Shown: positions 5,740 to 30,807, counted from the first letter of the stretch. The stretch is DNA of 30,807 bases from Coleofasciculus chthonoplastes F2-STO-03 (GCA_040222015.1 JAVJWO010000073.1:1-30807); one strand, 5' to 3'. The notes: generated by a model not told the origin, from the letters alone. Numbers and translations: made by a program.

Positions 5740-8700
5740 CTATCTGCTCTCACTTGATTCCACACGGAAACGTTCTACAGAATTGAGTAGATCTCGTGCC
5801 ACACCGACTAGGTTTTGTAAGGCACTGGACACCCGTTGGGCTTCCTGAGAGGTTTCTTGGGCAGTTAGCTCAACCGATTGCATGACTTGGGCAACAGCGC
5901 GGGAGGTTTCGGTTTGCTCGACTGTATCCGCTTTAATCGCTCGCACCAGCGAATCAATGCGATTGGACACTTGAATGATATCTTCCAATGCTTGTTTGGC
6001 TTGCTCTGCCCGTTTGGTTCCATCAATAACCTGCTGGGTGCCTTCTTCCATCGCCGTCATCACCGAACCTGTTTCGCTTTGAATCTGCATGACGATTTGC
6101 TCAATTTCTTTGAGTGCCTTGGCTGAACGGTCTGCCAGTTGCCGCACTTCATCGGCAACGACGGCAAACCCTCGACCCGCCTCTCCAGCTCGAGCTGCCT
6201 CGATACTGGCATTGAGCGCTAACAGGTTGGTTCGGGATGCAATTGTGGAAATTACGGCGACAATCTTGGAAATTTCCTGGGAAGACTCAGCCAATCGCTT
6301 GACTTTTCTCGTGGTTTCTGCTACAGTTTCTCGAATTTGCAAGATACCTGCCACCGTATGTTCTACCGCGTGACCGCCTCTGTGGGCGACATCCGCAGCG
6401 GTGTGGGCAACTTCCTCGGCTTCCCGGGCGGCTTCGGCGACTCGCTGAATGGAGTCGGTCATCACCTGAACGGAGTTGAGGGTAACGGCTAGTTCCTCGG
6501 CTTGGCGCAAGGCGTCATTGGATAAACTGCCAGCAAATGCCGCACTTTCGGTAGAACCCTTGGTCACTTTACGGGCGGCATCTTTTACTTGTTGAACGAT
6601 TTCCCGCAGATTTTGAATGGTTAGGTTAAAGGAGTCAGCCACCGCCCCCAAAACGTCGGCTGTTACTTCAGCTTGTACCGTCAAGTCGCCGCGTGCAGCT
6701 CCTTCTACATCATCTAGCAATCGAATCACCTGACGTTGCAGGTCTTCTTTGGCTTGCTCTTGTTCTTCAGCTTTTCGGGTGGCTTCGCTGGTGGTGGTTA
6801 AGATGACTCGCGCCATCTGGTTGAAACCTGAAGCCAGTTGACCGAGTTCTCCCTCGGAATAGATGGGGACACTGACATTCAGATTTCCCTGAGCAACGGC
6901 ATCAAACTGAGTTTGTAAATCCACGGTGACTTGTTGAATCTGGCGAGTGGTGATCCGACCCAGAAACAGGGTAATGCCAAAACTAGCCGCAAATGCTGCA
7001 CCACTGGCTAAAGCATGGGCAAATTTGAGATTCGCGATCGCGGGTTGAGCTTGCCCTTGGGGTACTGAACTTCGGGCAGCAATACTTTGTGCCGAAAAAC
7101 TGACTAAGGCAACAACAAAAGCGGAGGCAATCCCAGCCGCAAACGAGATAATCCACTGTTTATGATGGAGGGAAGCATTTTCAAAGGGAGCCAGCCACCC
7201 TTGATCAACACTAACGATCGGTTCATTTCCCCCCTCTTTGGCTTGACTAAAAACTGGGAGTTGTTCAGTTGAGCTACCAATACTGAAAATTTCTTCATCA
7301 CTATCAACTGAGCGATATTCCTGAGCCGATTGCTGGTGAGCAGCTACACTATCTCGGACGGCATCGCCATTTTCCCTAACTCCCTCACTTTCGCCACCTG
7401 CTGGTATGACTCCGCTGTTACTTAAAACATCAAAATCTGATTCACTCGCGCCCGAGTCAGCTAATTCATCCTGATCGTCTATGGCGAAATCGGGAAGAGA
7501 GCCTAAATCATCTTCAAATACATCAAAAGCGTCTAAAAAGTCTTTGTCCGTTTCAAGTTCTGAGAAGTTCTCAGCCTCAGCCTCAGCCACTTCATCCATC
7601 GTGAATGAGTCATTGCTGAAAGCATCGTCAAAGCTCTCAAAGTCGAAGTGCTCATCGGGAGCGTTAAATCCATTTTGATCGAAGTCTGATTCATCCTGAG
7701 TGTACTCCTGGCTTTCAAATGCTTCAATCGCCTCATCTGTTTCCTCAGCCGAATAGTCAAACTCATCGGTATCCGTTGGTAAACTTGCGCCCAACTCCCC
7801 TGAATTCATCAGTAGGGTTTCGTCTTCATAAACGGGGTGGTCTTCATCTGACTCGTCAATCGATTCATCATGCCAACCCTCCATTTCCTGATCAACGTCC
7901 GATAAGTCTTCATCGAAATGGGATTCTGACTCATAAGAGGGTGGATTCTGATCCTGAGCATCTTCAAATTCAGGGGCGCTACCGGGAGGCATGACAAATG
8001 TTGCCGCCGTATCATCCTCAGACTCCGCTGAAAAGTCCTCAAAGTGATCCTGATAATCGGCCTCGCTAAATGGGGTATCATTTAAATCAAAATCACTCGC
8101 TCCTTCCTCAAAATTTTCTGGGTAATTTGCCGAGCTAAAGGGGGTGTCATTTAGATCAAAATCACTCGCTCCTTCCTCATAATCTTCATAGTCTACCTCA
8201 GCAAAGGGGTTGTCATTTAGATCAAAATCACTCGATGACTCATAAAGATTGTCAACATCACCACTCTCTTCGTCTAAACCGCGCAAGGCAAATGGATTGG
8301 ATTCATCTACAGAACTTGGCTCATCCGTCGTCTCTGATTCAATAGCTGAACTATCCAGGGGTTCGGCAAAGGGCGAAGATGAGGTTGAGTCAAAATCATC
8401 CCCTAGTCCCGCTTCATCCAAATCTAAAGCCCCTAAATCGAAATCCTCAGACTCATCAATCGCTTCCGAGTCTTGCCAGGTTTCTAATGTAGGTATCTCA
8501 TTCAAATCATCGGTTTCATCAATATCGTGGAAATTGTTATCGAAGTCCTCTGTGGATGGGGGTGAATCGACAGAATCGAATTCACTGGACAATTGATTAG
8601 CATCTTCTAGACCTTTATGGGCATATTCGATAAAATCAGGTTCAGACGTTAAATTAAGAACTTGCTCATAGTGTTCCCGTGCTTGCTCGTACTGCTGTAG

Positions 8701-8862
8701 ACCATAGCAACAGATATGACCCTTAAGTAACAAAGCACTTGGATCATCGGGATACTCTTCAATCAACCGACTAATAAGATCGGCAGCTTCTTGGTATTTA
8801 CCTTGTGCGTAAGCCGTTTGTGCGTGTGTATATTCCTGAACGTAATCTGTACTTGATGCCAT
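5740..8862 (-). CDS. pilJ: Methyl-accepting chemotaxis protein PilJ/HmpD: TPR, long acidic linker, 2 TM, HAMP, MA domain (ATG at 8862 preferred)
   Basis: [34 protein letters not shown] signalling hairpin; [26 protein letters not shown] before ATG 8862. Confidence 0.93.
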
Positions 8863-8939
8863 TGACCTCCTCCCTTTGCTCACCAGGAAAAAGTAACAAA
8901 CAAAAGCTTGCTCTCTTTTTCCTTTCTTTTACTGTTCAT

Positions 8940-9470
8940 TCATGCTGCCCACCGCGCTGCTCGTAGAATTGCCACCTGATCGAGAAGTCGTAAAAATTGA
9001 TTAGATTCTGGATCTAATAACCACTCTCCTTTTAAAAAAGGTGCCATCGTATCCGGAACATTCATTGCCATTTGTAATTGCTCCACATCTAACCAATCCA
9101 TGTCCACAATTCGCTCCACGGCTAAACCAAGCATTGTATCTTGATCTTCGATGGCAATGACGGGAATTTCTGATCGGTCTGTATTGACAGGGATCGGCTC
9201 TCCCAGAAATTGACCCAGATCACCAACCCATATAACCCGACCTCGCATATTGATCGTCCCCAATAATAAGGGGGAAGCATTAGGGATCGGGGTGATCTGG
9301 TTGGGAGATGGCTCAAGCACTTCTTTAATCCCAGTCGCTGGCAAAGCAAATTCCATACCAGAAGGGACGTAAAATCGCAAGTGTAATTCACCCTCAGGAC
9401 TTTCTAGTTCTTGCAATTCTGGGGCTTGATCTTGACCAGTATCTGTTAAAAAATCCGGATTTCCAACCAT
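8940..9470 (-). CDS. pilI: CheW-family protein PilI/HmpC
   Basis: ITPIPNASPLLLGTINMRGRVIWVGDLGQFLG and LGLAVERI; cluster position. Confidence 0.92.
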   Translation of the reverse strand: MVGNPDFLTDTGQDQAPELQELESPEGELHLRFYVPSGMEFALPATGIKEVLEPSPNQITPIPNASPLLLGTINMRGRVIWVGDLGQFLGEPIPVNTDRSEIPVIAIEDQDTMLGLAVERIVDMDWLDVEQLQMAMNVPDTMAPFLKGEWLLDPESNQFLRLLDQVAILRAARWAA

Positions 9471-9494
9471 TCGCAGCTAGAGTCTTAACTATAT

Positions 9495-9860
9495 TTATGA
9501 CCTGAGTAGCTGTTTGACTGTGCCAATCAACTCGGTGGGCTGAAAGGGCTTAGCGATGTAAGCATCTGCCCCTTGCTTCATTCCCCAATATCGATCAAAT
9601 TCTTCGCCTTTTGAAGAACACATGACCACGGGTACATTTTGGGTTTTGGGATCAGCCTTTAAACGACGACAGACCTCGTACCCATTCATACGAGGCATAA
9701 CAATATCCAATACCACTACATCAGGACGAGACTGCAGAATATGTTCTAAGGCTTCCACTCCATCGCTTGCCACAGAGACTGTCAACCCACTGCCTTTGAG
9801 GAGGTCTGAGATCATCTGTCGCTGTGCCAAACTGTCTTCTACAACCAAAACTGTACTCAT
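9495..9860 (-). CDS. pilH: CheY-type response regulator PilH/HmpB
   Basis: VEDS, LDIVMPRMNG, CSSK, YIAKPF receiver motifs. Confidence 0.93.
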   Translation of the reverse strand: MSTVLVVEDSLAQRQMISDLLKGSGLTVSVASDGVEALEHILQSRPDVVVLDIVMPRMNGYEVCRRLKADPKTQNVPVVMCSSKGEEFDRYWGMKQGADAYIAKPFQPTELIGTVKQLLRS

Positions 9861-10114
9861 AACCCCCTACCTGACTTGCCAATAAGCGCACGAATTTTGA
9901 ACGTGAACTGAGCTGTATCGTTGAGCTATACCCTTAAACATAGATAGAGTAATGATTAATGTATCCTTTATGGTAGCTTCATCCTGAACTGATCCCTTTC
10001 TCTATTGTGACAGGCTTAACTGCCAAATGGAGCAGGGCGTATCGCTGTATGAGTCTATGAGGTGATTGTAGCGGAAGAATTACCTTCCTGGGTGTTACAT
10101 GATCATTGCTGTTG

Positions 10115-11413
10115 TTAAGCCGATGCTGATTTAGTAATATCGGTTGCCTTGACCTCCTCCTCTAGGACTTGGCGGGAACTATCGAAACTCATTTTTTCCG
10201 GATCTCCCGGACCTACGTATTTCTCCAATAACATCAACAGCTCACTGGCTCCAAACGGTTTAGTCAAATAGTCCGTTGAGCCTACCATGCGAGCTCTCAC
10301 ACGGTCAATAAAGCCATCTTTGCCCGTCAGCATAATGATTGGAGTTTGTCGAAATGTCGTCGATTGTCGCAACATGCCACACAGTTCATATCCATCGAGT
10401 TGGGGCATGACTAAATCACAGAGAATTAGAGCTGGTTTGATTTGGAAGAGTAAGCTCAGAGCTTTGAGGGGATTTTGAATCGCTGTTACTTCATATCCTT
10501 GGGCTTGCAGCATATACTCGACGGTTTTGCTAACTGCCTTGTCATCATCAATACAGACTACAGAGGGTGCATGATCTGCCCGGGTGGATTCCCAAGGTTG
10601 TCGAACGGCGAGGGTTTGTTGAGGTGCTGACGTCAGCAATTGAATCCAACTCCGTTGGATATAGGGGTAAATGGCTCGGGTGACAGTCAGGATGTCACGA
10701 TTGAGATAGCGAGCCATCTGTCGCAGAGAATTCTTGCCATTTGCCCACCGTTGGAGGGTTCTAAATGCATTCTCCGGTAATGCTGCCTTTAATTTAGTTT
10801 CATCCGTAATCAGTGGGCATTGATTGGGGGATTGGATATGGGGATGAAACTGCTTCCACTCCTGGACTTGCTTCATAATCTTGGTCACTAGGGGGGCAAT
10901 TTCTAAGGTGGTGAGTTGGGGCGCTAAGGCTGGATCAACCTCGAAGACAAAATATCCATTGTGGAGGCTCAACAGGTCAAATAGGGTTTCATGTACCATA
11001 CTGTGGAGAATGCTGCGCCCTTGAGCTGGCGTGATAATATGGTTTTCTAGCAACGCCCAAAGATAGCCATATTCGGGAGCATTGGTCGAAGCAATCGACG
11101 GTTCTTCGATGTCATCCAAAGCTCCTTCAGCTCGATAGCGACGCAGGTAATCGCGCAGTCGTGACAAACTGTGATCACTGTTTGCCGCATAAGCAATTTG
11201 TCCGTTGAGAAAAAAAACAAACCAAAATGGTCCAGGGCAACGGGGTGGGGTCGCGAGGTGAGAGCGTCCCTGGATAAATTTATGAGTCACATCACTACCA
11301 GAGTTATGGGTGTGGAAGCTTTGCGCCTCAACTAAAAGTTCTCCTGTGCGCTGACCCAGTTCGATCAGTTGCAGGATACTGCGGATATCAATTTCATTTA
11401 ACGTTCCCTGCAT
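10115..11413 (-). CDS. pilG: PatA-type response regulator PilG/HmpA (PATAN/DUF4388 + receiver)
   Basis: MQGTLNEIDIRSILQLIELGQRTGEL N-terminus; C-terminal receiver CIDDD, CDLVMP, YLTKPF. Confidence 0.9.
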   Translation of the reverse strand: MQGTLNEIDIRSILQLIELGQRTGELLVEAQSFHTHNSGSDVTHKFIQGRSHLATPPRCPGPFWFVFFLNGQIAYAANSDHSLSRLRDYLRRYRAEGALDDIEEPSIASTNAPEYGYLWALLENHIITPAQGRSILHSMVHETLFDLLSLHNGYFVFEVDPALAPQLTTLEIAPLVTKIMKQVQEWKQFHPHIQSPNQCPLITDETKLKAALPENAFRTLQRWANGKNSLRQMARYLNRDILTVTRAIYPYIQRSWIQLLTSAPQQTLAVRQPWESTRADHAPSVVCIDDDKAVSKTVEYMLQAQGYEVTAIQNPLKALSLLFQIKPALILCDLVMPQLDGYELCGMLRQSTTFRQTPIIMLTGKDGFIDRVRARMVGSTDYLTKPFGASELLMLLEKYVGPGDPEKMSFDSSRQVLEEEVKATDITKSASA

Positions 11414-20099: not shown

Positions 20100-21272
20100 T
20101 TAATACTCCGGTACGGACGGGTCAATTTCCCGACTCCAAGCGGTAATTCCCCCTTTGACATTAATCCCTTCAATTCCGGATTCTTTGAGAATGCCTAATG
20201 CTTTAGCTGAACGTCCTCCCATTTTACAATGGGCAATTAAGCGATGACCATTTAGGAGTTGCTTAACTTTTTCGACGCCTGAACCTTGTTCAATATCCGG
20301 TAATGGGACTAAAACAGCACCGGAAATTTTAGCAATCTCGTATTCATTGGGATTGCGGACATCAACGAGGACAAAATCCTTTGTGTCACTATCCATTAAT
20401 TGCTTGAGTTCTTGAACGGTCATTTCTTGAATTGCCATTAACCGTTGCGCCTCCTGTTCTTTAGCTTGGGTAATGCCACAGAATTGTTCGTAGTCTACTA
20501 ATTTTTCGATAACGGGGCGTACTGGATTCGGTCGCAGTTTCAGTTCCCGGAATTTCATATCCAGGGCGTTGTACAGTAACAACCGTCCGCTGAGGGTTGT
20601 CCCCTTACCCAGGATAATTTTAACGGCTTCCGTGGCTTGGATGAGTCCAATAATTCCAGGCAAAATACCCAAAACGCCCCCTTCTGCACAGGAGGGAACC
20701 ATTCCGGGAGGTGGGGGTTCGGGGAACAAGTCGCGGTAGTTTGGTCCATCTTCGTAGTTAAAGACGCTGGCTTGTCCTTCAAACCGCAAGATGGAACCGT
20801 AGACATTAGGTTTACCCAGGATTACGCAGGCGTCATTGACGAGGTAACGGGTGGGAAAATTATCGGTTCCATCGACAACAACATCATAAGGTTTCACGAT
20901 ATCCAGCGCATTCTCCGATGTCAGGCGGGTTTCGTAGAGATCAACTTGACAATAGGGGTTAATTTCTAGAATCCGGGTTTTTGCCGATTGAATTTTCGGT
21001 TTCCCTACCCAGGATGTCCCGTGAATCACTTGACGTTGCAGGTTGGAACTATCGACGATATCAAAATCTACGATTCCGATACGTCCAATCCCGGCGGCGG
21101 CTAAATACAGTAAGAGGGGTGAACCGAGTCCGCCGGTACCGATACAGAGAACACTCGCCGCTTTGAGGCGTTTTTGTCCCTCTAGTCCAACTTCCGGCAA
21201 TATTAGGTGTCGAGAATATCGTTCGTATTCTTCTTTGGTTAGCTGGATTTCGTCCAGATTGGGATTTAACAT
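20100..21272 (-). CDS. moeB: MoeB/MoeZ-type E1-like adenylyltransferase with C-terminal rhodanese
   Basis: RYSRHL, GTGGLG, SNLQRQ, DGTDNF, PSCAEGG; rhodanese DVRNPNEY and HCKMGGRS. Confidence 0.93.
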   Translation of the reverse strand: MLNPNLDEIQLTKEEYERYSRHLILPEVGLEGQKRLKAASVLCIGTGGLGSPLLLYLAAAGIGRIGIVDFDIVDSSNLQRQVIHGTSWVGKPKIQSAKTRILEINPYCQVDLYETRLTSENALDIVKPYDVVVDGTDNFPTRYLVNDACVILGKPNVYGSILRFEGQASVFNYEDGPNYRDLFPEPPPPGMVPSCAEGGVLGILPGIIGLIQATEAVKIILGKGTTLSGRLLLYNALDMKFRELKLRPNPVRPVIEKLVDYEQFCGITQAKEQEAQRLMAIQEMTVQELKQLMDSDTKDFVLVDVRNPNEYEIAKISGAVLVPLPDIEQGSGVEKVKQLLNGHRLIAHCKMGGRSAKALGILKESGIEGINVKGGITAWSREIDPSVPEY

Positions 21273-21367
21273 GGCAATTTGGTAAGATTAGCGATCAGCG
21301 ATTGGGAATTGGGTATTAGGGATTGGGGAAGTATTCCAGACCTAGCATACTACGTCTTGAAGTTCGT

Positions 21368-21430
21368 GTAGGGGCGGGTTTGACTATTATCGTTTATTGT
21401 TCACCTAGATGCGACTAAACCCGCCCCGAC
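21368..21430. repeat. REPIN-like element (GTAGGGGCGGGTTT...AAACCCGCCCC)
   Basis: Inverted arms; spacer homologous to the copy at 23920. Confidence 0.8.
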
Positions 21431-21484
21431 CAAGTTTTGAGTTGCCTCATTTCCCTCATCTCCCAGACGCGCCATGGCACGTCT

Positions 21485-21991
21485 CTACATTATTGCTTCC
21501 GTGAGAATCTCTTCCGGCTGAAACTGGTGATGGGGATCGAGAGTCCAGCTTCTCAGGTCAGAAGCTATACCCTGTTGAACGGAAATTATAATATACGAAT
21601 AACGATGCCATGCGATCGCCCGATCAAATTCTGAGGGAATGGCTGGATGGTCAGGATGAGAGTGATAAATCCCAATGATATCTAATTCGCGATCGCGTGC
21701 CTGCTTCTGAACCTTCAACATCACCTCTGGGGCAATGCTAAACTGATTCCGTTTCGTCCCTGACTGACGCGGGGAACCGTTTACCCCTTGAAAGGCTTCA
21801 GCCGCCTGAGTATCCCAAGCGTTTTCTGTGGGTGAGACTTCAACCAGCGTTTTTACCTCCCCCTTAATTTGACCTAATAACAAACCACAGCATTCTTCTG
21901 GGTATGTGCTTTCGGCGTGAGTTTTCATCACCTGAATCTGATCAGGGTTAATGTTGACTAAATGGGTTGGGGAATAGTCTGAGTTTGACAT
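21485..21991 (-). CDS. JAB/MPN+ (M67, Mec-like) metallopeptidase
   Basis: YPEECCGLL and JAMM motif YHSHPDHPAIPSEFD; upstream of moeB. Confidence 0.92.
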   Translation of the reverse strand: MSNSDYSPTHLVNINPDQIQVMKTHAESTYPEECCGLLLGQIKGEVKTLVEVSPTENAWDTQAAEAFQGVNGSPRQSGTKRNQFSIAPEVMLKVQKQARDRELDIIGIYHSHPDHPAIPSEFDRAIAWHRYSYIIISVQQGIASDLRSWTLDPHHQFQPEEILTEAIM

Positions 21992-22148
21992 CAATCTCAG
22001 GGAATAGGGAATAAGTGTAATCTACGCTAAACTCAATCTTAGACCATAGGAATCCTACTATTATTTTTTAAGTCGTCGGACAAAAGAAAACAAAACCGTA
22101 CTAAGTTTTATAAACAAACCTCAAGCCCTTACAAAGGACGAATGACAA

Positions 22149-24169: not shown

Positions 24170-25777
24170 ATGAAACCTATCTTACCTATTTTTGCGATTA
24201 TCGGATTACTCCAGAGTTGCACCACCCCGGTGAACATTTCCTCTCAAGCCATCAGGAATCCCGCTAATTGCCCTAGCCAAACTGAACCCGTACCCATTGC
24301 GTCTGCTAATGATCAGGGACTGTATCAGCAATTTGACTATCACATTCGCGATATTATTACAGATGCTGATACGATTACCTTCCAGACGCAGCAGTATGAT
24401 ATTGTCTTTTGCCGATTTGATCGCACTTGGACAGTAGAACCGGGAACCTTAGCCAATGAATTGCAGACAGCTAATAATCCTGAACAATTCTCAGAAAATC
24501 TCCAGAATTCCCCCTATCAAACTATTGAAATTAACGGTAAATCTTATCAATATCGCGTCATTCTCGAACCGAATCCCTTTGGCAATGAAGCGCAAGGAAT
24601 TGAACCCGAAACGGTTGTCTTTGAACTGATTACTCCCAATAGCGAACAACCCCAACGTCACCCCCTCTATACCTTAGACCAGGTAAGGCAGGCTGAAGTC
24701 GGATTTTCCTTGGGAGTTCCTCGAATTACCTCCGCCCTCAGTTATGCGGATCGCCTATTTTGGTCAGTCGCATCGGAACAAGGGGAAGGATTTAGTGGTA
24801 TCGCCACGATGGTTGGTTACAATCCCGATATGAATGAGTTGGTGGTGATTCAACCTGAAGAAATTCAAGGGCAACAAATTACTGATTTTGTCATCGCCGG
24901 AGATCCCAGCAATCCAGTCTTTTGGCTGGGAACTCAAATCAGTGGCGAAGGGAATCCCTATCTATCCGGAATGGGATTAGTTGCCTATCGTCCTTCTCCT
25001 CCTTCTCTCAAATCGGGAACAATTACCTCCTACACCGTCCGCAATAGTCCGATTATTGGGGCAATTCCTGATCAACTGCACTTAGAAGGCGATCGCCTCT
25101 GGGTGGGAACCGGAAATGGGGTTTGCCAGGTTCGTTGGCAAGGGGCAGATAATTCTGGAAATTGGTCTTGTTGGCGATTTGCAGCAAAGGCGAAACTGCC
25201 GAGTCAGGGATTGCCGATTTACCGCCGTTTATTAGCGGAAACTCCATCCGTTACTCTGGAGGCGGATCAGGTGGGAGATACGGTAGAGGTATTATGGTGG
25301 TCTCCGTTGGACTACCAAACCCAAAAAGGGCGGTATGAAGTTCGGTATGAGAATGGCTTTACCGTCAGCTTAGACGAGGGGACGAGTTCTTGGTCTGAGA
25401 AATATGGGTCATCATGGCAACCTCGTCCCTGGCAACCGCCTCTATACTGGGCGGGACACGAATGGCATTGGCAAGGCGATCGCTTTGTGCGCGGTTTTGA
25501 TCAAGTCGCCCTAAATTTCTTTGGTGGTGGACCTCTGGGAATTGTATCCGATCAGGATCAATGGACAGGGGAAAAGCCAGCGAATATGAACGCCTTGCGG
25601 GGTGATTTAGACGTATTGGAATTAACGGAAACGACAACGAAGCTGAATTATTATTCAGGTTGGGTAGAAGAAGAATTACTGAATCCTTATTTCACCGTTG
25701 TTCCTCAAAATCGTCCCTTTAATCCGCGTCCTAATCCTTTAGATGAGATGGCAAAGACGGTATCTGTGTCTAGGTGA
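24170..25777 (+). CDS. Putative lipoprotein with beta-rich (propeller-like) body
   Basis: Signal MKPILPIFAIIGLLQSC with lipobox-like LQSC; repeated strands LFWSVA, FWLGTQ, LWVGTGNG. Confidence 0.75.
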   Translation: MKPILPIFAIIGLLQSCTTPVNISSQAIRNPANCPSQTEPVPIASANDQGLYQQFDYHIRDIITDADTITFQTQQYDIVFCRFDRTWTVEPGTLANELQTANNPEQFSENLQNSPYQTIEINGKSYQYRVILEPNPFGNEAQGIEPETVVFELITPNSEQPQRHPLYTLDQVRQAEVGFSLGVPRITSALSYADRLFWSVASEQGEGFSGIATMVGYNPDMNELVVIQPEEIQGQQITDFVIAGDPSNPVFWLGTQISGEGNPYLSGMGLVAYRPSPPSLKSGTITSYTVRNSPIIGAIPDQLHLEGDRLWVGTGNGVCQVRWQGADNSGNWSCWRFAAKAKLPSQGLPIYRRLLAETPSVTLEADQVGDTVEVLWWSPLDYQTQKGRYEVRYENGFTVSLDEGTSSWSEKYGSSWQPRPWQPPLYWAGHEWHWQGDRFVRGFDQVALNFFGGGPLGIVSDQDQWTGEKPANMNALRGDLDVLELTETTTKLNYYSGWVEEELLNPYFTVVPQNRPFNPRPNPLDEMAKTVSVSR

Positions 25778-25782
25778 AAACC

Positions 25783-25800
25783 TTTACAAAAATTTACATA
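25783..25800 (+). promoter_or_regulatory. HLR1 (RpaB-binding) motif
   Basis: TTTACAAA-AA-TTTACATA matches (G/T)TTACA(T/A)(T/A)-N2-(G/T)TTACA(T/A)(T/A) at every position. Confidence 0.6.
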
Positions 25801-25984
25801 ATTTCCCAACTTTTTGTCCTACTGACTTAAAAATAGGAGTCAGGAGAGATTAATTTTCATCTGTTCTGGTGTACGCAGTTTATCAGGGCTACTTAGATCT
25901 ATTTCACTAGGGTTTTATCCTGAAAAAGAAGTCAAGGGTGAGTAGAAAGACTCAAGTAGACACAAATAGGCACAAATAGGCAAA

Positions 25985-26087
25985 TATAGCAGTACGCTCT
26001 CGCGTAGTTACAGTACACTTGTTCTAAGTCTCTTTTGATAAACCCCTCATTTCTAATAGTGTAAATACACCAGCGCGTAGCGCTATA
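25985..26087. mobile_element. 103-bp MITE with TA ends (IS630/Tc1-like)
   Basis: TATAGCAGTACGCTCTCGCGTAGTTACA versus reverse complement of the right end TATAGCGCTACGCGCTGGTGTATTTACA: 22/28 identical. Confidence 0.7.
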
Positions 26088-26094
26088 GATCAAC

Positions 26095-26709
26095 ATGAAG
26101 AAGGTTACCATGTCAGATTCTAATAGACAGTCAAGACAGTCATCGCCTGAGACAAAATCTATTTCAAGTGCAATAATTCAATTGTTATCAATTCCAGTAA
26201 TTGCTGATTTTTTCCAAGCAAGACCTTGGATAACTTTAGTAACATTGATCACTCTCTTTGCCGGAAATATCTTGCAAGTTTTTATACAGCTACCAGAAAA
26301 ACAAACTGATAATGTAAATAATGAATTTACTGAATTTCCTATTACCAAAAATGACTTAGAGTCAATATGTATATCTATGGAGTCTGAAATTCACAAAAAA
26401 AAAGAACAGGAAATAATTAATTATAAATCAGTCGAACTTGATGATGATGCAACAAACTTATGGCCTGTGTTTCGTTGGGTATGTGTTTATCAAGCAGTAT
26501 ATCATGATCCAATGGCTGGAATTCAATCAAGGTATACCTTTAGAAAAGGGATTGATCTAAATGAAAATTTTTGCAATAAATTTCCCTATAATCCACCGTT
26601 AAAAATTTATTTTAAAGACTTTAATGATCCTAATTCTTTAGTTTGCACTAAAATCGCCAATGATCTTTCTCAGCGGACGCCTCCCATTGTTGCACCTTCT
26701 ACGGAATAA
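26095..26709 (+). CDS. AT-rich hypothetical membrane-anchored protein with a 4-Cys C-terminal domain
   Basis: TM WITLVTLITLFAGNILQVFI; Cys pattern ESIC...WVC...IDLNENFC...DPNSLVC. Confidence 0.65.
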   Translation: MKKVTMSDSNRQSRQSSPETKSISSAIIQLLSIPVIADFFQARPWITLVTLITLFAGNILQVFIQLPEKQTDNVNNEFTEFPITKNDLESICISMESEIHKKKEQEIINYKSVELDDDATNLWPVFRWVCVYQAVYHDPMAGIQSRYTFRKGIDLNENFCNKFPYNPPLKIYFKDFNDPNSLVCTKIANDLSQRTPPIVAPSTE

Positions 26710-26719
26710 GGTTTTAAGC

Positions 26720-26853
26720 TACTGGACTGACACAGCTAAAATTGTGGGATAGATTTGGCGGTGAAATTGGGCGCATGCCATGCGCCCCTACAATTCTAAT
26801 CCACCAATTAAGGTGTGCCACGCCACTACTGGCGCGACCCAACTAAAATGGTG
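26720..26853. mobile_element. MITE with imperfect TIRs enclosing a REP hairpin, plus the left end of a second copy
   Basis: TACTGGACTGACACAGCTAAAATTGTGG / CCACCAATTAAGGTGTGCCACGCCACTA; internal GGGCGCATGCCATGCGCCCCTAC; followed by TACTGGCGCGACCCAACTAAAATGGTG. Confidence 0.6.
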
Positions 26854-26865
26854 TATTAGTCAATT

Positions 26866-27270
26866 ACTGGAGTTTAGACTACGACCAATTAACTCAGCCA
26901 TAGCTCTATGCTGAGAAAGAAGAAAAATTCCTAAATGTAAAGAGGTTAAGAAGCTTTTTTATTCCGTTTTTTGTGTCGTGCTTTACCTTTTTTGACCACA
27001 AGGTAACTTGTTATTTTAGTACGTTTGTTCCCTTTCTTCCAACCTGGAGACTTTCCACCTGCGTACTCGAAACCGTCCTAACTTGACATCCTCAACCTCA
27101 AAAGTCTCGGTGGCTTTCCACCAAGTTGAAGAGTCGTTGAGCTTAAATTTTCGACCATGTTTTCTCGGTCGTCCCTTACCTGTATATAGCGGAGGAGCTG
27201 AATATAAACAACGGTCTACGGTATTAAACCGGACAATTTTATCAGTAATTCCGATTATGGGGCGATGATT
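26866..27270 (-). mobile_element. Internally deleted transposase remnant (NF041680/IS701-like type)
   Basis: YTGKGRPRKHGRKFKLNDSSTWW joined out of frame to the C-terminal KSPGWKKGNKRTKITSYLVVKKG; ends in AGTCTAAACTCCAGT. Confidence 0.7.
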
Positions 27271-27349
27271 GGTTGCCAGGGGTGTTAGCATAATTTTAAT
27301 CTAGGACTTCTAGTTTTTGCTTCACTATCAAGTCAAATCAATTGATAAA

Positions 27350-28669
27350 ATGCTTAAAACAATTCAAGTTGAAAACTTCAAAAGCTATCGACATGGAGTT
27401 TTACCCTTGGCTTCTTTAACTGTCTTAATTGGTGCTAATGCATCAGGCAAAAGCAACATCATTGAAGCCCTAAAATTACTGTCTATGATTGCTGAAGGCG
27501 AGCGATTAAGCCTGCTGGGAAACACGCATCAACAGAGTGACAATCTGTTTAGAGGTGAAATTAATAATCTTGGATACCGAGGATCAACATCATTGCAAAT
27601 TTCTTGTGATGTAACAACTCAAGCCTTTGCCGGCTGGGAGCATTTTGAGATTCATCTAGGGTTTGGCAAGGATGGAGAGATCCATGTCACCCAAGAAAAA
27701 ATCACAGGCTCGACATCGACTGTTCCACTTTACCAAATTATCAGTGAACCTCAAGGAGCAGGTAGTGATGTTTTTGTGGCATATAATAATTTTGCCCGTG
27801 GTGGTAGAAAGCCAAAAATCGTATGCAGTAGCCAGATGGCAATTTTCACACAGTTATTGAGTGAAATTCGGTTTCGTCCTGAAAACCAAGAAACTCGCGC
27901 TCAAATACCGAAAATCACTAAGAATTATGTGCGTTGGTTGAGTGGCATTGTTTTTCTGGAGCCTGAACCTAATGCCATGCGCTTTTATGGACATAAAACC
28001 GATAAATTGCTCAAGAAACACGGCGAAAATATTTCGGGTGTTCTTTATACTCTATGCCAAGACGCGACGATTAAGGCTGAGATATTAGAATTTGTGAGAA
28101 GCCTTCCTGAACAAGATATTAAAGATATCAGCTTTATTGAAACGCCTCGTGGAGAAGTGATGGTGCAGTTAACTGAAACCTTTGGTGGCACATCAACTGC
28201 CTATGATGCCGCGACTCTTTCAGATGGCACATTAAGAGTTCTGTCGATTGCAGGAGTTTTGTTTTCGGCTCCAGAACAAAGCATTGTCGTTATTGAAGAA
28301 ATTGATAATGGAGTACATCCTAGTCGAGCCGAAAGTTTGCTGAAGCGGATGTCTAATATTGCACAACGACGTAATTTGCGAGTGCTGATTAGTAGCCATA
28401 ATCCGGCATTACTTGATGCGTTACCGGATCAGGCTGTACCAGAAACCGTTTTTTGCTATCGTAGTCCTGATGATGGTTCGAGTAAACTGATCCGATTAGG
28501 AAATATTCCAGACTACCCTGAATTAATTGCTCAAGGTTCGGTTGGACATCTGATGACACGGGGTTTACTTGAACGGTTTGTGAAACATCATCCTGGACGT
28601 GAACAGAAGCAGCAAAAAGCACTGGAATGGTTAGCTTCTATCCGTGAAGAGATGGAGATCAGCGGATGA
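27350..28669 (+). CDS. Soluble ABC-type ATPase (AAA_15/AAA_21-like); start re-called to MLKTIQVENFKS
   Basis: IQVENFKSY, Walker A GANASGKSN, signature LSDGTLR, Walker B/D-loop VVVIEEIDNGVHP, H-loop ISSHNP; no TM segments. Confidence 0.9.
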   Translation: MLKTIQVENFKSYRHGVLPLASLTVLIGANASGKSNIIEALKLLSMIAEGERLSLLGNTHQQSDNLFRGEINNLGYRGSTSLQISCDVTTQAFAGWEHFEIHLGFGKDGEIHVTQEKITGSTSTVPLYQIISEPQGAGSDVFVAYNNFARGGRKPKIVCSSQMAIFTQLLSEIRFRPENQETRAQIPKITKNYVRWLSGIVFLEPEPNAMRFYGHKTDKLLKKHGENISGVLYTLCQDATIKAEILEFVRSLPEQDIKDISFIETPRGEVMVQLTETFGGTSTAYDAATLSDGTLRVLSIAGVLFSAPEQSIVVIEEIDNGVHPSRAESLLKRMSNIAQRRNLRVLISSHNPALLDALPDQAVPETVFCYRSPDDGSSKLIRLGNIPDYPELIAQGSVGHLMTRGLLERFVKHHPGREQKQQKALEWLASIREEMEISG

Positions 28670-29121
28670 AGGCAGTGGCAATTGTTGATACCTCTATCTT
28701 TTGTGAGTTTCTGAATATTCCTAATATGAATAGCTCACAAGAGGAAGTCTTAAATGAATTTGAAAGACTTGTCTTTAACGATACATCATTTCTTTTGCCA
28801 ATAGCTGCTGTTTATGAAACAGGCAATCATATCGCCCAATTACCGGATGGGAAAAATCGTCGCCGTTTCGCTCAAGCTTTTGTTAGGGAAGTTCAGAAAG
28901 CGATTAACGGAGAGGCTCCTTGGCAAATTCTGCGAGTTCCAACGGTTCAAGAAATTGGTATATGGTTGAATGAATTTCCTGACTCAGCGATGCGAACTGT
29001 AGGTATGGGAGATCTGTCAATTATTAAAGAATGGGAAGAAGCCAAAAAGAGGACTCCTTATCTACGTGTGTTTATTTGGTCTTTAGACAAAGACTTGAGA
29101 GGATATGACTACCAGCCATAA
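28666..29121 (+). CDS. PIN-domain (VapC-like) nuclease
   Basis: Acidic tetrad in PIN-type contexts: IVD8TS, VYE51TGN, GMGD116LSI, WSLD141KD143; ATGA overlap with the ATPase stop. Confidence 0.72.
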   Translation: MKAVAIVDTSIFCEFLNIPNMNSSQEEVLNEFERLVFNDTSFLLPIAAVYETGNHIAQLPDGKNRRRFAQAFVREVQKAINGEAPWQILRVPTVQEIGIWLNEFPDSAMRTVGMGDLSIIKEWEEAKKRTPYLRVFIWSLDKDLRGYDYQP

Positions 29122-29185
29122 TAATGTGAACCTGTAGGGTGTGTTAATTATTTACTGTTGATTGGTTTTGGAAACCAAACCCCTA

Positions 29186-29971
29186 CTAATCATTAACAAA
29201 ATTAGCAATAACCGGGAAATGATCCGAGGGAAAAATTCCTTGGCATTTCCGATCATCAACGGTCACAGTTTCTCGTTTTACGCGACTATCGTAATAAATC
29301 GTATCAACAGCAGCAAACGGCTGACCTGTAAAGTCATGAAAACTTAACTGTTTTTCTAATTCAATATCGGATAAGGCATCATGGAGAGTCATAGAATTCG
29401 CTGATGACTTGGATAAGATTTCCCGTGGTAAGCTACCGGGTTCAGCATTAAAATCACCTGTAAGGAAAAGATAGGTAGTGTCAGGGTTGCAGTGAATCAT
29501 GCGATCGCGGATCAGTCTTGCCCCCAATTCCCGTGCCTTGGCGCTGTTATAATCTAGATGGGTATTGAAACAGGTGATTGTTTTAGATACCTGCGCTACA
29601 CTAAAGACTGCCCAAGTTGTCATGCGCGGTAAAGGGTTCCCCCAGTTCGGACTAACACTTCCAGCACTATCAGGCGTATCACTTAAGAAAAAATCACCAT
29701 GATCCAAGCATTTGAGACGGTCTTGGTTATAGAAAATCGCACAATGTTCTCCTGTTCCTGTTCCCGTGCGATCGCCCCCAATACTTTGATAATTCGGGAG
29801 ACGGCGATGTAAGTCCAGTAACTGATGGGCTTTGCCTTCCTGTGTGCCAATGATATCTGGATGATACTCCTGAATCAGCGCCGCGATCGCATCACGCCGA
29901 ATCCTCCAATCCTGGTTATCTGGATCAGGCTTATCGTAACGGATATTGAACGTTATGATTCTAATATTCAT
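29186..29971 (-). CDS. Endonuclease/exonuclease/phosphatase (EEP) family protein (alternative start 29992)
   Basis: TFNIRYD, GTQEG, NTHLD, GDFNA, VDTIY, SDHFPV catalytic motifs. Confidence 0.92.
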   Translation of the reverse strand: MNIRIITFNIRYDKPDPDNQDWRIRRDAIAALIQEYHPDIIGTQEGKAHQLLDLHRRLPNYQSIGGDRTGTGTGEHCAIFYNQDRLKCLDHGDFFLSDTPDSAGSVSPNWGNPLPRMTTWAVFSVAQVSKTITCFNTHLDYNSAKARELGARLIRDRMIHCNPDTTYLFLTGDFNAEPGSLPREILSKSSANSMTLHDALSDIELEKQLSFHDFTGQPFAAVDTIYYDSRVKRETVTVDDRKCQGIFPSDHFPVIANFVND

Positions 29972-29999
29972 AGGTGATTCGTCATTCGTCATTTGTCAT

Positions 30000-30492: not shown

Positions 30493-30675
30493 GTGACACA
30501 CGATGCTAAAATTTTAGTCATTGAAGATGAATAAATTTTGCGTGACATTATCATTAATGTCTTACAGGAAAAAGGATATAAGGCAATTGGGACTGGGGAT
30601 TATCACAGGGGCTTACTCTTAGCCAAAGAGTTAGTCCCTGATTTAATTTTGTGCGATTTTCGGATGCCAAAGTTG
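30493..30675 (+). pseudogene. Response-regulator receiver pseudogene
   Basis: VTHDAKILVIEDE*ILRDIIINVLQEKGY...VPDLILCDFRMPKL; TAA at 30532-30534; truncated by a tandem repeat. Confidence 0.82.
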
Positions 30676-30807
30676 ATTTATCGGTGAGGAGGGCGGGTTT
30701 TGTTGTTGATTTATCGGTGAGGAGGGCGGGTTTTGTTGTTGATTTATCGGTGAGGAGGGCGGGTTTTGTTGTTGATTTATCGGTGAGGAGGGCGGGTTTT
30801 GTTGTTG
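30672..30807. repeat. 33-bp perfect tandem repeat (4 copies plus a partial, runs off the window)
   Basis: Unit GTTGATTTATCGGTGAGGAGGGCGGGTTTTGTT at 30672, 30705, 30738 and 30771; no spacers. Confidence 0.97.

Follow-up and report, generated by a model that had tools for sequence, protein, structure and literature searches.

An intact copy of the candidate defence system PDC-M07, an ABC ATPase paired with a predicted PIN ribonuclease, in Coleofasciculus chthonoplastes

What kind of system is formed by two overlapping genes of the cyanobacterium Coleofasciculus chthonoplastes F2-STO-03 that encode a soluble ABC-type ATPase and a small putative nuclease? The genes lie in a stretch of 30,807 nucleotides (the window) at the start of contig C73 of this 7.7-Mb genome. 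A sequence-only reading had described them as an intact pair with an ATGA overlap and had proposed an unnamed anti-phage or toxin system in which the ATPase acts as sensor and a PIN RNase as effector. Both ORFs were recovered, on the same strand and sharing the ATGA (Table 1). The closest homologues of the pair were found in filamentous cyanobacteria, the ATPase of locus L052 being the nearest named homologue (93% identical).

Table 1. Positions of the gene pair and its surroundings in the window.
Feature	Position	Strand	Basis or predicted role
Left flank gene, 535 aa	24170..25777	+	88-95% identity in 5/5 congeners searched
Variable upstream segment, outside the system: orphan ORF, two short repeats, transposase fragment	25747..27217		Missing in X1 contig
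Internally deleted transposase remnant, NF041680 / IS701-like	26862..27217	-	80-84% DNA, 80% aa identity to congener loci
Leader travelling with the cassette, likely holds the promoter	27218..27349	+	X1 contig junction
PDC-M07A, soluble ABC ATPase (OLD/PtuA/Rad50-like head), 439 aa	27350..28669	+	Predicted sensor and restraint
PDC-M07B, PIN-fold protein, 151 aa, tetrad D8/E51/D116/D141	28666..29121	+	Predicted RNase effector
Right flank gene, Exo_endo_phos family	29186..29992	-	Pfam PF03372

Judged by its sequence, the window pair is an intact copy of the catalogued candidate system PDC-M07 (PADLOC-DB 2.0.0). The ATPase matched PDC-M07A over residues 1-434 with 619.6 bits (E 7.9e-187); this family was named in 5/5 top PADLOC matches, and the next family reached 118 bits. 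For the small protein all six PADLOC matches were to PDC-M07B (196 bits, E 9.4e-59, residues 1-150), and the pair also has the gene adjacency and order of PDC-M07. The PDC set was defined by embedding in BREX or type I RM (Payne et al., bioRxiv 10.1101/2024.01.29.577857), in a paper whose main text does not name M07. Embedding in BREX, DISARM or type I RM was found for members of the family; the window copy is not embedded. A full-text literature search for 'PDC-M07' returned 0 papers, and no published experimental test of the system was found in the literature, full-text searches included; the supplementary files of the preprint by Payne et al., of PMC12988326 and of PMC12839542 may describe M07. 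The accessible parts of PMC12881386 report tests of PDC-M05 and HEC-01, not of M07, and in those of PMC13092281, where DS-3 and DS-5 represent other PIN systems, no M07 test was found, nor was one found in the accessible parts of PMC11381338, PMC11514479 and PMC12065111. The claim of an unnamed system did not survive, as PADLOC names both genes PDC-M07A/B. Novelty is not supported because both genes are catalogued and the HEC-03 design has already been shown to be anti-phage, and the window locus is not a discovery, being one more copy of a catalogued candidate.

The ATPase carries Pfam AAA_21/AAA_15 domains. Its motifs were taken from the sequence and then scored across 102 paired homologues. 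K34 of the Walker A motif GANASGKS (residues 28-35), the SDG of the ABC signature LSDG (290-293) and H350 were each present in 102/102, the two glutamates of Walker B (EE, 316-317) in 101/102 and 100/102, D319 in 101/102 and Q168 in 88/102. Walker A, signature, Walker B and H-loop, read as intact from the window, are near-invariant in this set. The best Foldseek matches of a structure model (pLDDT 89.2) were retron and Septu PtuA and OLD, and in VIA, a second-look search, Rad50, SMC and PtuA scored about equally (Z 17-19); AriA was absent among the structural matches listed by Foldseek and VIA, which excludes nothing. The equally high scores of Rad50 and SMC heads and of PtuA would also suit a housekeeping or repair module, in which an ATPase like Rad50 or SMC works with a PIN nuclease outside any conflict. 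The C-terminal helix of the ATPase, suggested earlier as a docking site, is predicted at H417-438. Its W427 is kept in 82/84 homologues possessing the helix, which is missing from 18/102; a docking role for this predicted helix cannot be a general feature. Against three relatives, dN/dS was 0.10-0.18 for the ATPase gene and 0.11-0.32 for the PIN gene (two further relatives were saturated), and both genes are under purifying selection.

No family was assigned to the small protein by Pfam and NCBIfam searches, and sub-threshold PIN matches appeared in two of five homologues tested. Foldseek placed the PIN fold on top for its AlphaFold model (pLDDT 92.9), with probability 1.00 but an E value of only 1e-3. 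The best VIA match was VapC20 (5wzf; Z 13.8, rmsd 2.2, 125 residues aligned), followed closely by 5x3t, which we take to be VapBC26 (Z 13.6), and ranks 1-22 were PIN/VapC-type or uncharacterised archaeal entries. The protein models as a VapC-like PIN alpha/beta topology. Among 103 PIN homologues D8 and E51 were each conserved in 103/103, D116 in 102/103 and D141 in 98/103. The fourth acidic residue, which had been left as D141 or D143, is assigned to D141 because D143 is conserved in only 43/103. A conserved acidic tetrad, without D143, is present in this predicted nuclease.

The surroundings of the pair indicate how it may have reached this genome. In run X1 one contig joined window positions 24931-25746 to 27218-27578 via ~93 other letters; because it skips from 25746 to 27218, the cassette begins near 27218 and the segment upstream is separate and variable. 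A promoter scan gave 14 sites against 10.0 +/- 3.4 expected by chance, none of them in the 27218-27349 leader. The variable segment contains an orphan 204-aa ORF (26095-26709; GC 32%, one hydrophobic stretch) that occurs once in the genome and drew no match from Pfam, PADLOC or NCBIfam. It also contains repeats at ~25980-26088 (up to 8 other genome matches) and ~26719-26859 (up to 65 genome matches), and the congener ORF that matches the transposase remnant scored E 8.5e-64 to NF041680. These multicopy repeats and the transposase fragment agree with the earlier description of decayed DNA upstream of the pair. In one congener (G007, contig C17) the flank genes lie ~50 bases apart: matches stop at window 25753 and restart at 29167, and window 25754-29166 (~3.4 kb) is absent. 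In four other congeners the two flanks were on different contigs. The pair had no match in 7/8 congeners, the eighth having only a distant subfamily. GC content was 42% in the ATPase gene, 39% in the PIN gene and 45% in the genome; HIP1 occurred 0 times in the 3.4-kb island with ~2.7 expected, which is too weak alone. The window copy is likely a horizontally acquired mobile cassette.

Some further features of the window lie apart from the pair. A perfect 33-base tandem repeat (30672-30807, 4.1 copies) reaches the window end and may be an assembly artefact; a short ORF just before it (30538-30687) resembles the start of a response regulator. A ThiF-rhodanese gene adjoins a Prok-JAB gene at 20100-21994, presumably an ordinary sulfur-carrier pair and not CBASS Cap2/Cap3. 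A chemotaxis-like cluster at 5740-11413 (DUF4388 response regulator, CheY-like, CheW and TPR-HAMP-MCP protein) is of a kind ordinary for cyanobacteria.

The PIN family is widespread: 839 relatives were obtained with clustering at 90%, and 1017 representatives with clustering at 50%. About 770 matching stretches were estimated in GTDB species genomes, and the best 80 of these were fetched; they came from Cyanobacteriota, Pseudomonadota, Acidobacteriota, Chloroflexota, Spirochaetota, Desulfovibrio and methanogenic archaea, among others. Pair conservation was checked in these best 80 of ~770 loci: the ATPase gene lay directly upstream of the PIN gene in 79/80, the exception (L056) being a contig edge, and the two overlapped in 49/72 scored junctions. 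No conserved small gene stood next to the pair across the 80 loci, in line with the earlier statement that an adjacent VapB-like antitoxin gene is lacking. Among 301 cyanobacterial genomes, the PIN profile gave matches in 32 and the ATPase profile, at E 1e-40, in 36. A second subfamily, with a ~415-aa ATPase without the last helix and a ~170-aa PIN, also scores as M07. Three viral-contig loci in all were found in IMG/VR, and a search of an annotated phage collection gave no relative of the pair. Single loci had neighbours of their own: the pair lies on an IMG/VR contig of 52 kb, where a gene with a P22 antirepressor domain and a gene for a 2520-aa LPD3-domain protein flank it (L001:6730-8507), just after a terminase gene (L131), together with an orphan hsdS on the Lactococcus lactis plasmid pUC06D (L166:7668-9636; WP_128062390/391), and in Baaleninema simplex directly upstream of a gene for an mCpol-domain protein with a CARF-TM match (L053:10975-12432).

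The pair was carried on 10 plasmids, including ones of 9 kb and 11 kb and the Anabaena cylindrica plasmid NC_019772, and this could be explained by a selfish toxin-antitoxin (addiction) module, in which the ATPase would neutralise the PIN and the pair would stabilise its own presence or that of the plasmid, BREX or RM locus that carries it, without any phage sensing. The many unrelated housekeeping neighbourhoods of the pair, and the TA-type or mobile genes often found beside it (Uma2, MazF, HicB, HepT, Fic), fit such a module as well. Against it stand the ATPase, which at 439 aa and with all its catalytic motifs conserved far exceeds the needs of an antitoxin, the location of the pair inside BREX and RM operons, and the anti-phage activity of the same design in HEC-03, PARIS and Septu. 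We therefore regard addiction as unlikely.

The defence operons in question came from the relatives. Among the 80 loci the pair was inside or beside BREX in 12 and type I RM in 6. It lay between brxC and pglX in nine (L085, L087, L092, L102, L107, L109, L112, L120, L124; L112 and L120 are from Halomonas) and between pglW and pglX in L090, and pglX was directly downstream in L093 and L094; BREX genes stood on both sides in 10 loci. Type I RM enclosed the pair in L095, L105, L110, L115 and L122 and adjoined it in L114, and type IIG or DISARM genes were near the pair in L066, L068, L072, L089 and L129. A Vibrio plasmid, in addition, has the order hsdM-hsdS-pair-hsdR. With queries drawn from these same loci, a BREX, RM or DISARM gene was found at <=5 kb in 16 of the 49 loci that had 5 kb on both sides, and none of the queried genes in 33/49. 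The baseline, a rough one from one genome and distant queries, is that ~0.9% of the own genome is this near its RM/DISARM matches. On an ATPase tree (quick method, SH-aLRT only) the embedded loci came down to roughly one clade of type I BREX, a single case of type II BREX and one clade rich in RM; because of this relatedness the embedding amounts to ~3 to 5 events, not 18. In the cyanobacterial clade of the window copy (20 rows) none was in BREX or type I RM, and the neighbourhoods were varied housekeeping ones. Pfam and PADLOC searches found no defence gene beside the window pair; type I RM, type IIG and DISARM-like genes of this genome are on other contigs, and no BREX match was obtained with the queries used. 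Defence-gene neighbourhoods, looked for as support of the proposed function, were thus found in relatives and not for the window copy and its clade.

Which of the two genes breaks first bears directly on how they work together. The 301 cyanobacterial genomes contained 39 ATPase loci of the M07A clade: 27 intact pairs, 7 with a broken PIN, 4 without PIN (three of one clade), 1 broken ATPase without PIN and 0 broken ATPases with an intact PIN. The best-80 loci, a set that favours intact PINs because the loci were found by PIN motif, added broken PINs in L052, L064 and L070, a double break in L065 and the reverse case in L111, a deleted ATPase beside an intact-looking PIN. In total, with the PIN-less ATPases L137-L139 scored as one event, the PIN was broken or absent with an intact ATPase frame in 12 cases, the reverse was seen in 1, and both were broken in 2. 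Under length-proportional decay (the PIN being 26% of the coding length) the binomial P is 8e-7; with 8/9 instead it is 1e-4. Two pairs among the 12 PIN losses are close kin (96-98% identity) with differing lesions.

Rows were judged by hand, and a frame was counted only if it had a stop, a shift or an insertion or lacked a domain. The count excludes contig-edge loci (L008, L034, L056, L059, L093, L118), PIN fragments only (L157-L159), sister-clade ATPases (L134-L136) and duplicates (L025, L038, L039, and L032 = L082). A contig of run X2 differed from window 27250-28736 by 7 letters with no stop and lacked 353 bases of the PIN gene. Run X20, a single RNA run with only short pieces as contigs, had a 358-base PIN gap whose end is close to that of the X2 gap; it may be the same event and was left out of the count, as were low-share sequencing runs.

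Read most simply, the bias arises because a toxic PIN is freed, with harmful effect, when the ATPase is lost first. This suggests that the ATPase restrains a toxic RNase, and that the PIN does harm when no working ATPase is present; addiction predicts the same bias. The loss bias, which is new, is a useful addition, and so are the embedding sites. The PIN-less M07A clade (L137:2438-3706, L138:2988-4262 and L139:3273-4526, in genomes G291, G159 and G281) has ED instead of EE in Walker B, dN/dS of 0.07-0.10 at dS 1.3-2.7, and a common upstream neighbour (in L137 a gene of the AI-2E transporter family), and is possibly a domesticated ATPase. Because these PIN-less ATPases are under purifying selection, the ATPase may have its own use, which could also bias the losses. 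Their persistence beside a transporter gene in three genomes is a point for the housekeeping module, which we nevertheless consider extremely improbable: presence is patchy (32/301 cyanobacterial genomes), decay is frequent, neighbours change, and the pair is carried on plasmids and embedded in defence operons.

A different defence mechanism would have the ATPase activate a latent nuclease (RNase or DNase), with both proteins needed and neither toxic alone, as has been reported of PARIS AriB and DS-5. AriB alone is only mildly toxic according to the accessible parts of PMC11464382, HEC-03 requires both genes, the DS-5 PIN is not unleashed by removing its partner (PMC13092281, accessible parts), and L111 retains a PIN beside a broken ATPase. 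If breaking either gene gave equal relief from cost, however, the three-times-longer ATPase should be broken more often, and the count was 1 against 12. We hold activation alone to be decidedly unlikely.

The reading that we prefer, and consider probable, is that the window pair is a horizontally acquired PDC-M07 in which the ATPase would bind and restrain the PIN RNase and free it when a phage protein is sensed, in a PARIS-like abortive defence. It draws on the family assignment, the PIN-like predicted fold, the conserved acids, the obligate pairing, purifying selection, the patchy spread, the embedding in BREX/RM and the loss bias. By analogy with PARIS and HEC-03, the ABC ATPase would bind the PIN RNase and hold it in check, a phage protein sensed by the ATPase would lead to ATP-dependent release of the PIN, and the freed PIN would cut tRNA or rRNA; translation would then stop and the infection be aborted. 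Anti-restriction proteins are a first guess for the trigger because of the BREX/RM setting. In the own genome any guarding would be in trans, since the window cassette stands alone. Of the sequence-only interpretation as a whole, the PIN fold, the obligate pairing, the defence context of relatives and the sensor-effector reading held up, and the novelty did not.

A more specific version, in which PDC-M07 guards BREX or type I RM, the ATPase is antitoxin and sensor in one, and a VapC20-like PIN cuts the sarcin-ricin loop of 23S rRNA and not tRNA, appears very unlikely to us in this full form. The title of structure entry 5wzf names a sarcin-ricin loop cleaving toxin, but the target of the PIN is not readable from the VapC20 match because other VapCs are within 2-3 Z units. 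If the sarcin-ricin loop were cut, phage-encoded tRNAs could not rescue translation.

PDC-M07 is a good test case, as it is widespread and combines a PARIS/Septu-type sensor with a PIN family missed by Pfam. The loss bias leads to a sharp prediction, namely that the PIN is toxic on its own and that the ATPase relieves this toxicity. Should the system act as a guard of BREX or type I RM against anti-restriction proteins, a PIN-based layer would be added to that arms race, and if the guard model is true there would be one more defence to weigh in cyanobacterium-cyanophage ecology.

Among known toxins, VapC20 and VapC26-type VapC of type II VapBC were the best structural matches of the PIN model, at 12-15% identity only and with the VapB partner absent here; membership in type II VapBC was rejected, the upstream gene being an ATPase in 79/80 loci with no recurring small neighbour. 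Septu and retron PtuA were the top Foldseek chains for the window ATPase (E ~1e-14 to 1e-13), at 11-17% identity and with an NCBIfam PtuA score of 35 against a cut-off of 500. Septu membership was rejected, as Pfam and PADLOC gave no HNH match and the partner has a predicted PIN fold and is not PtuB. PARIS and HEC-01 share with PDC-M07 the pairing of a sensor ABC ATPase with a small nuclease, and the PARIS AriA and HEC-01A models match the window ATPase at 99-118 bits. The effector is a TOPRIM protein in PARIS and a predicted PIN in PDC-M07; PARIS membership was rejected, as no TOPRIM (DUF4435) effector was found and the partner models as PIN with no AriB match. According to the accessible parts of PMC11464382, the hexameric ABC ATPase of PARIS holds the nuclease and lets it go once it has bound phage proteins such as Ocr; tRNA is the substrate of the nuclease. 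The analogy is imperfect because of the mild toxicity of AriB alone; the losses suggest that, unlike in PARIS, the PIN needs its ATPase as restraint. The ATPase clade nearest outside PDC-M07A (27-30% identity; ~230-240 bits to the PDC-M07A model) has in 2/3 loci a partner of 190-200 aa with TOPRIM-like acidic motifs recognised by eye (L135:3972-4571, L136:2588-3154), which Pfam, PADLOC and NCBIfam searches did not match; this hints at effector exchange.

A tested analogue is HEC-03, in which an ABC ATPase is joined to a VapC-like PIN and which blocks phage and requires both genes (Payne et al., bioRxiv 10.1101/2024.01.29.577857). HEC-03 and PDC-M07 share the two-gene design and the effector fold class, and the ATGA overlap was also seen in loci found with the HEC-03 ATPase model. 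Three such loci were fetched and two of them (L150, L152) compared: the ATPases are ~22% identical to those of PDC-M07, and the PINs have no sequence or profile similarity (hhalign probability 1.4%, with a 2-sequence profile). Only residues 1-55 of the window ATPase match a HEC-03 model (49 bits), and no HEC-03 model matched the small protein at E 0.1. HEC-03 membership was rejected, these being different families. In two of the three HEC-03-model loci the ATPase and PIN-like pair is directly followed by a gene for an RNA ligase (L150:3326-4123, L152:3321-4007; PF09414, as tested on L150), which suggests a coupling of RNA cutting to repair. Modules of OLD-ABC ATPases and PIN RNases inside BREX loci have been described computationally as a back-up effector layer (2026 survey, PMC12839542, accessible parts), and are set beside PDC-M07 here as an analogy.
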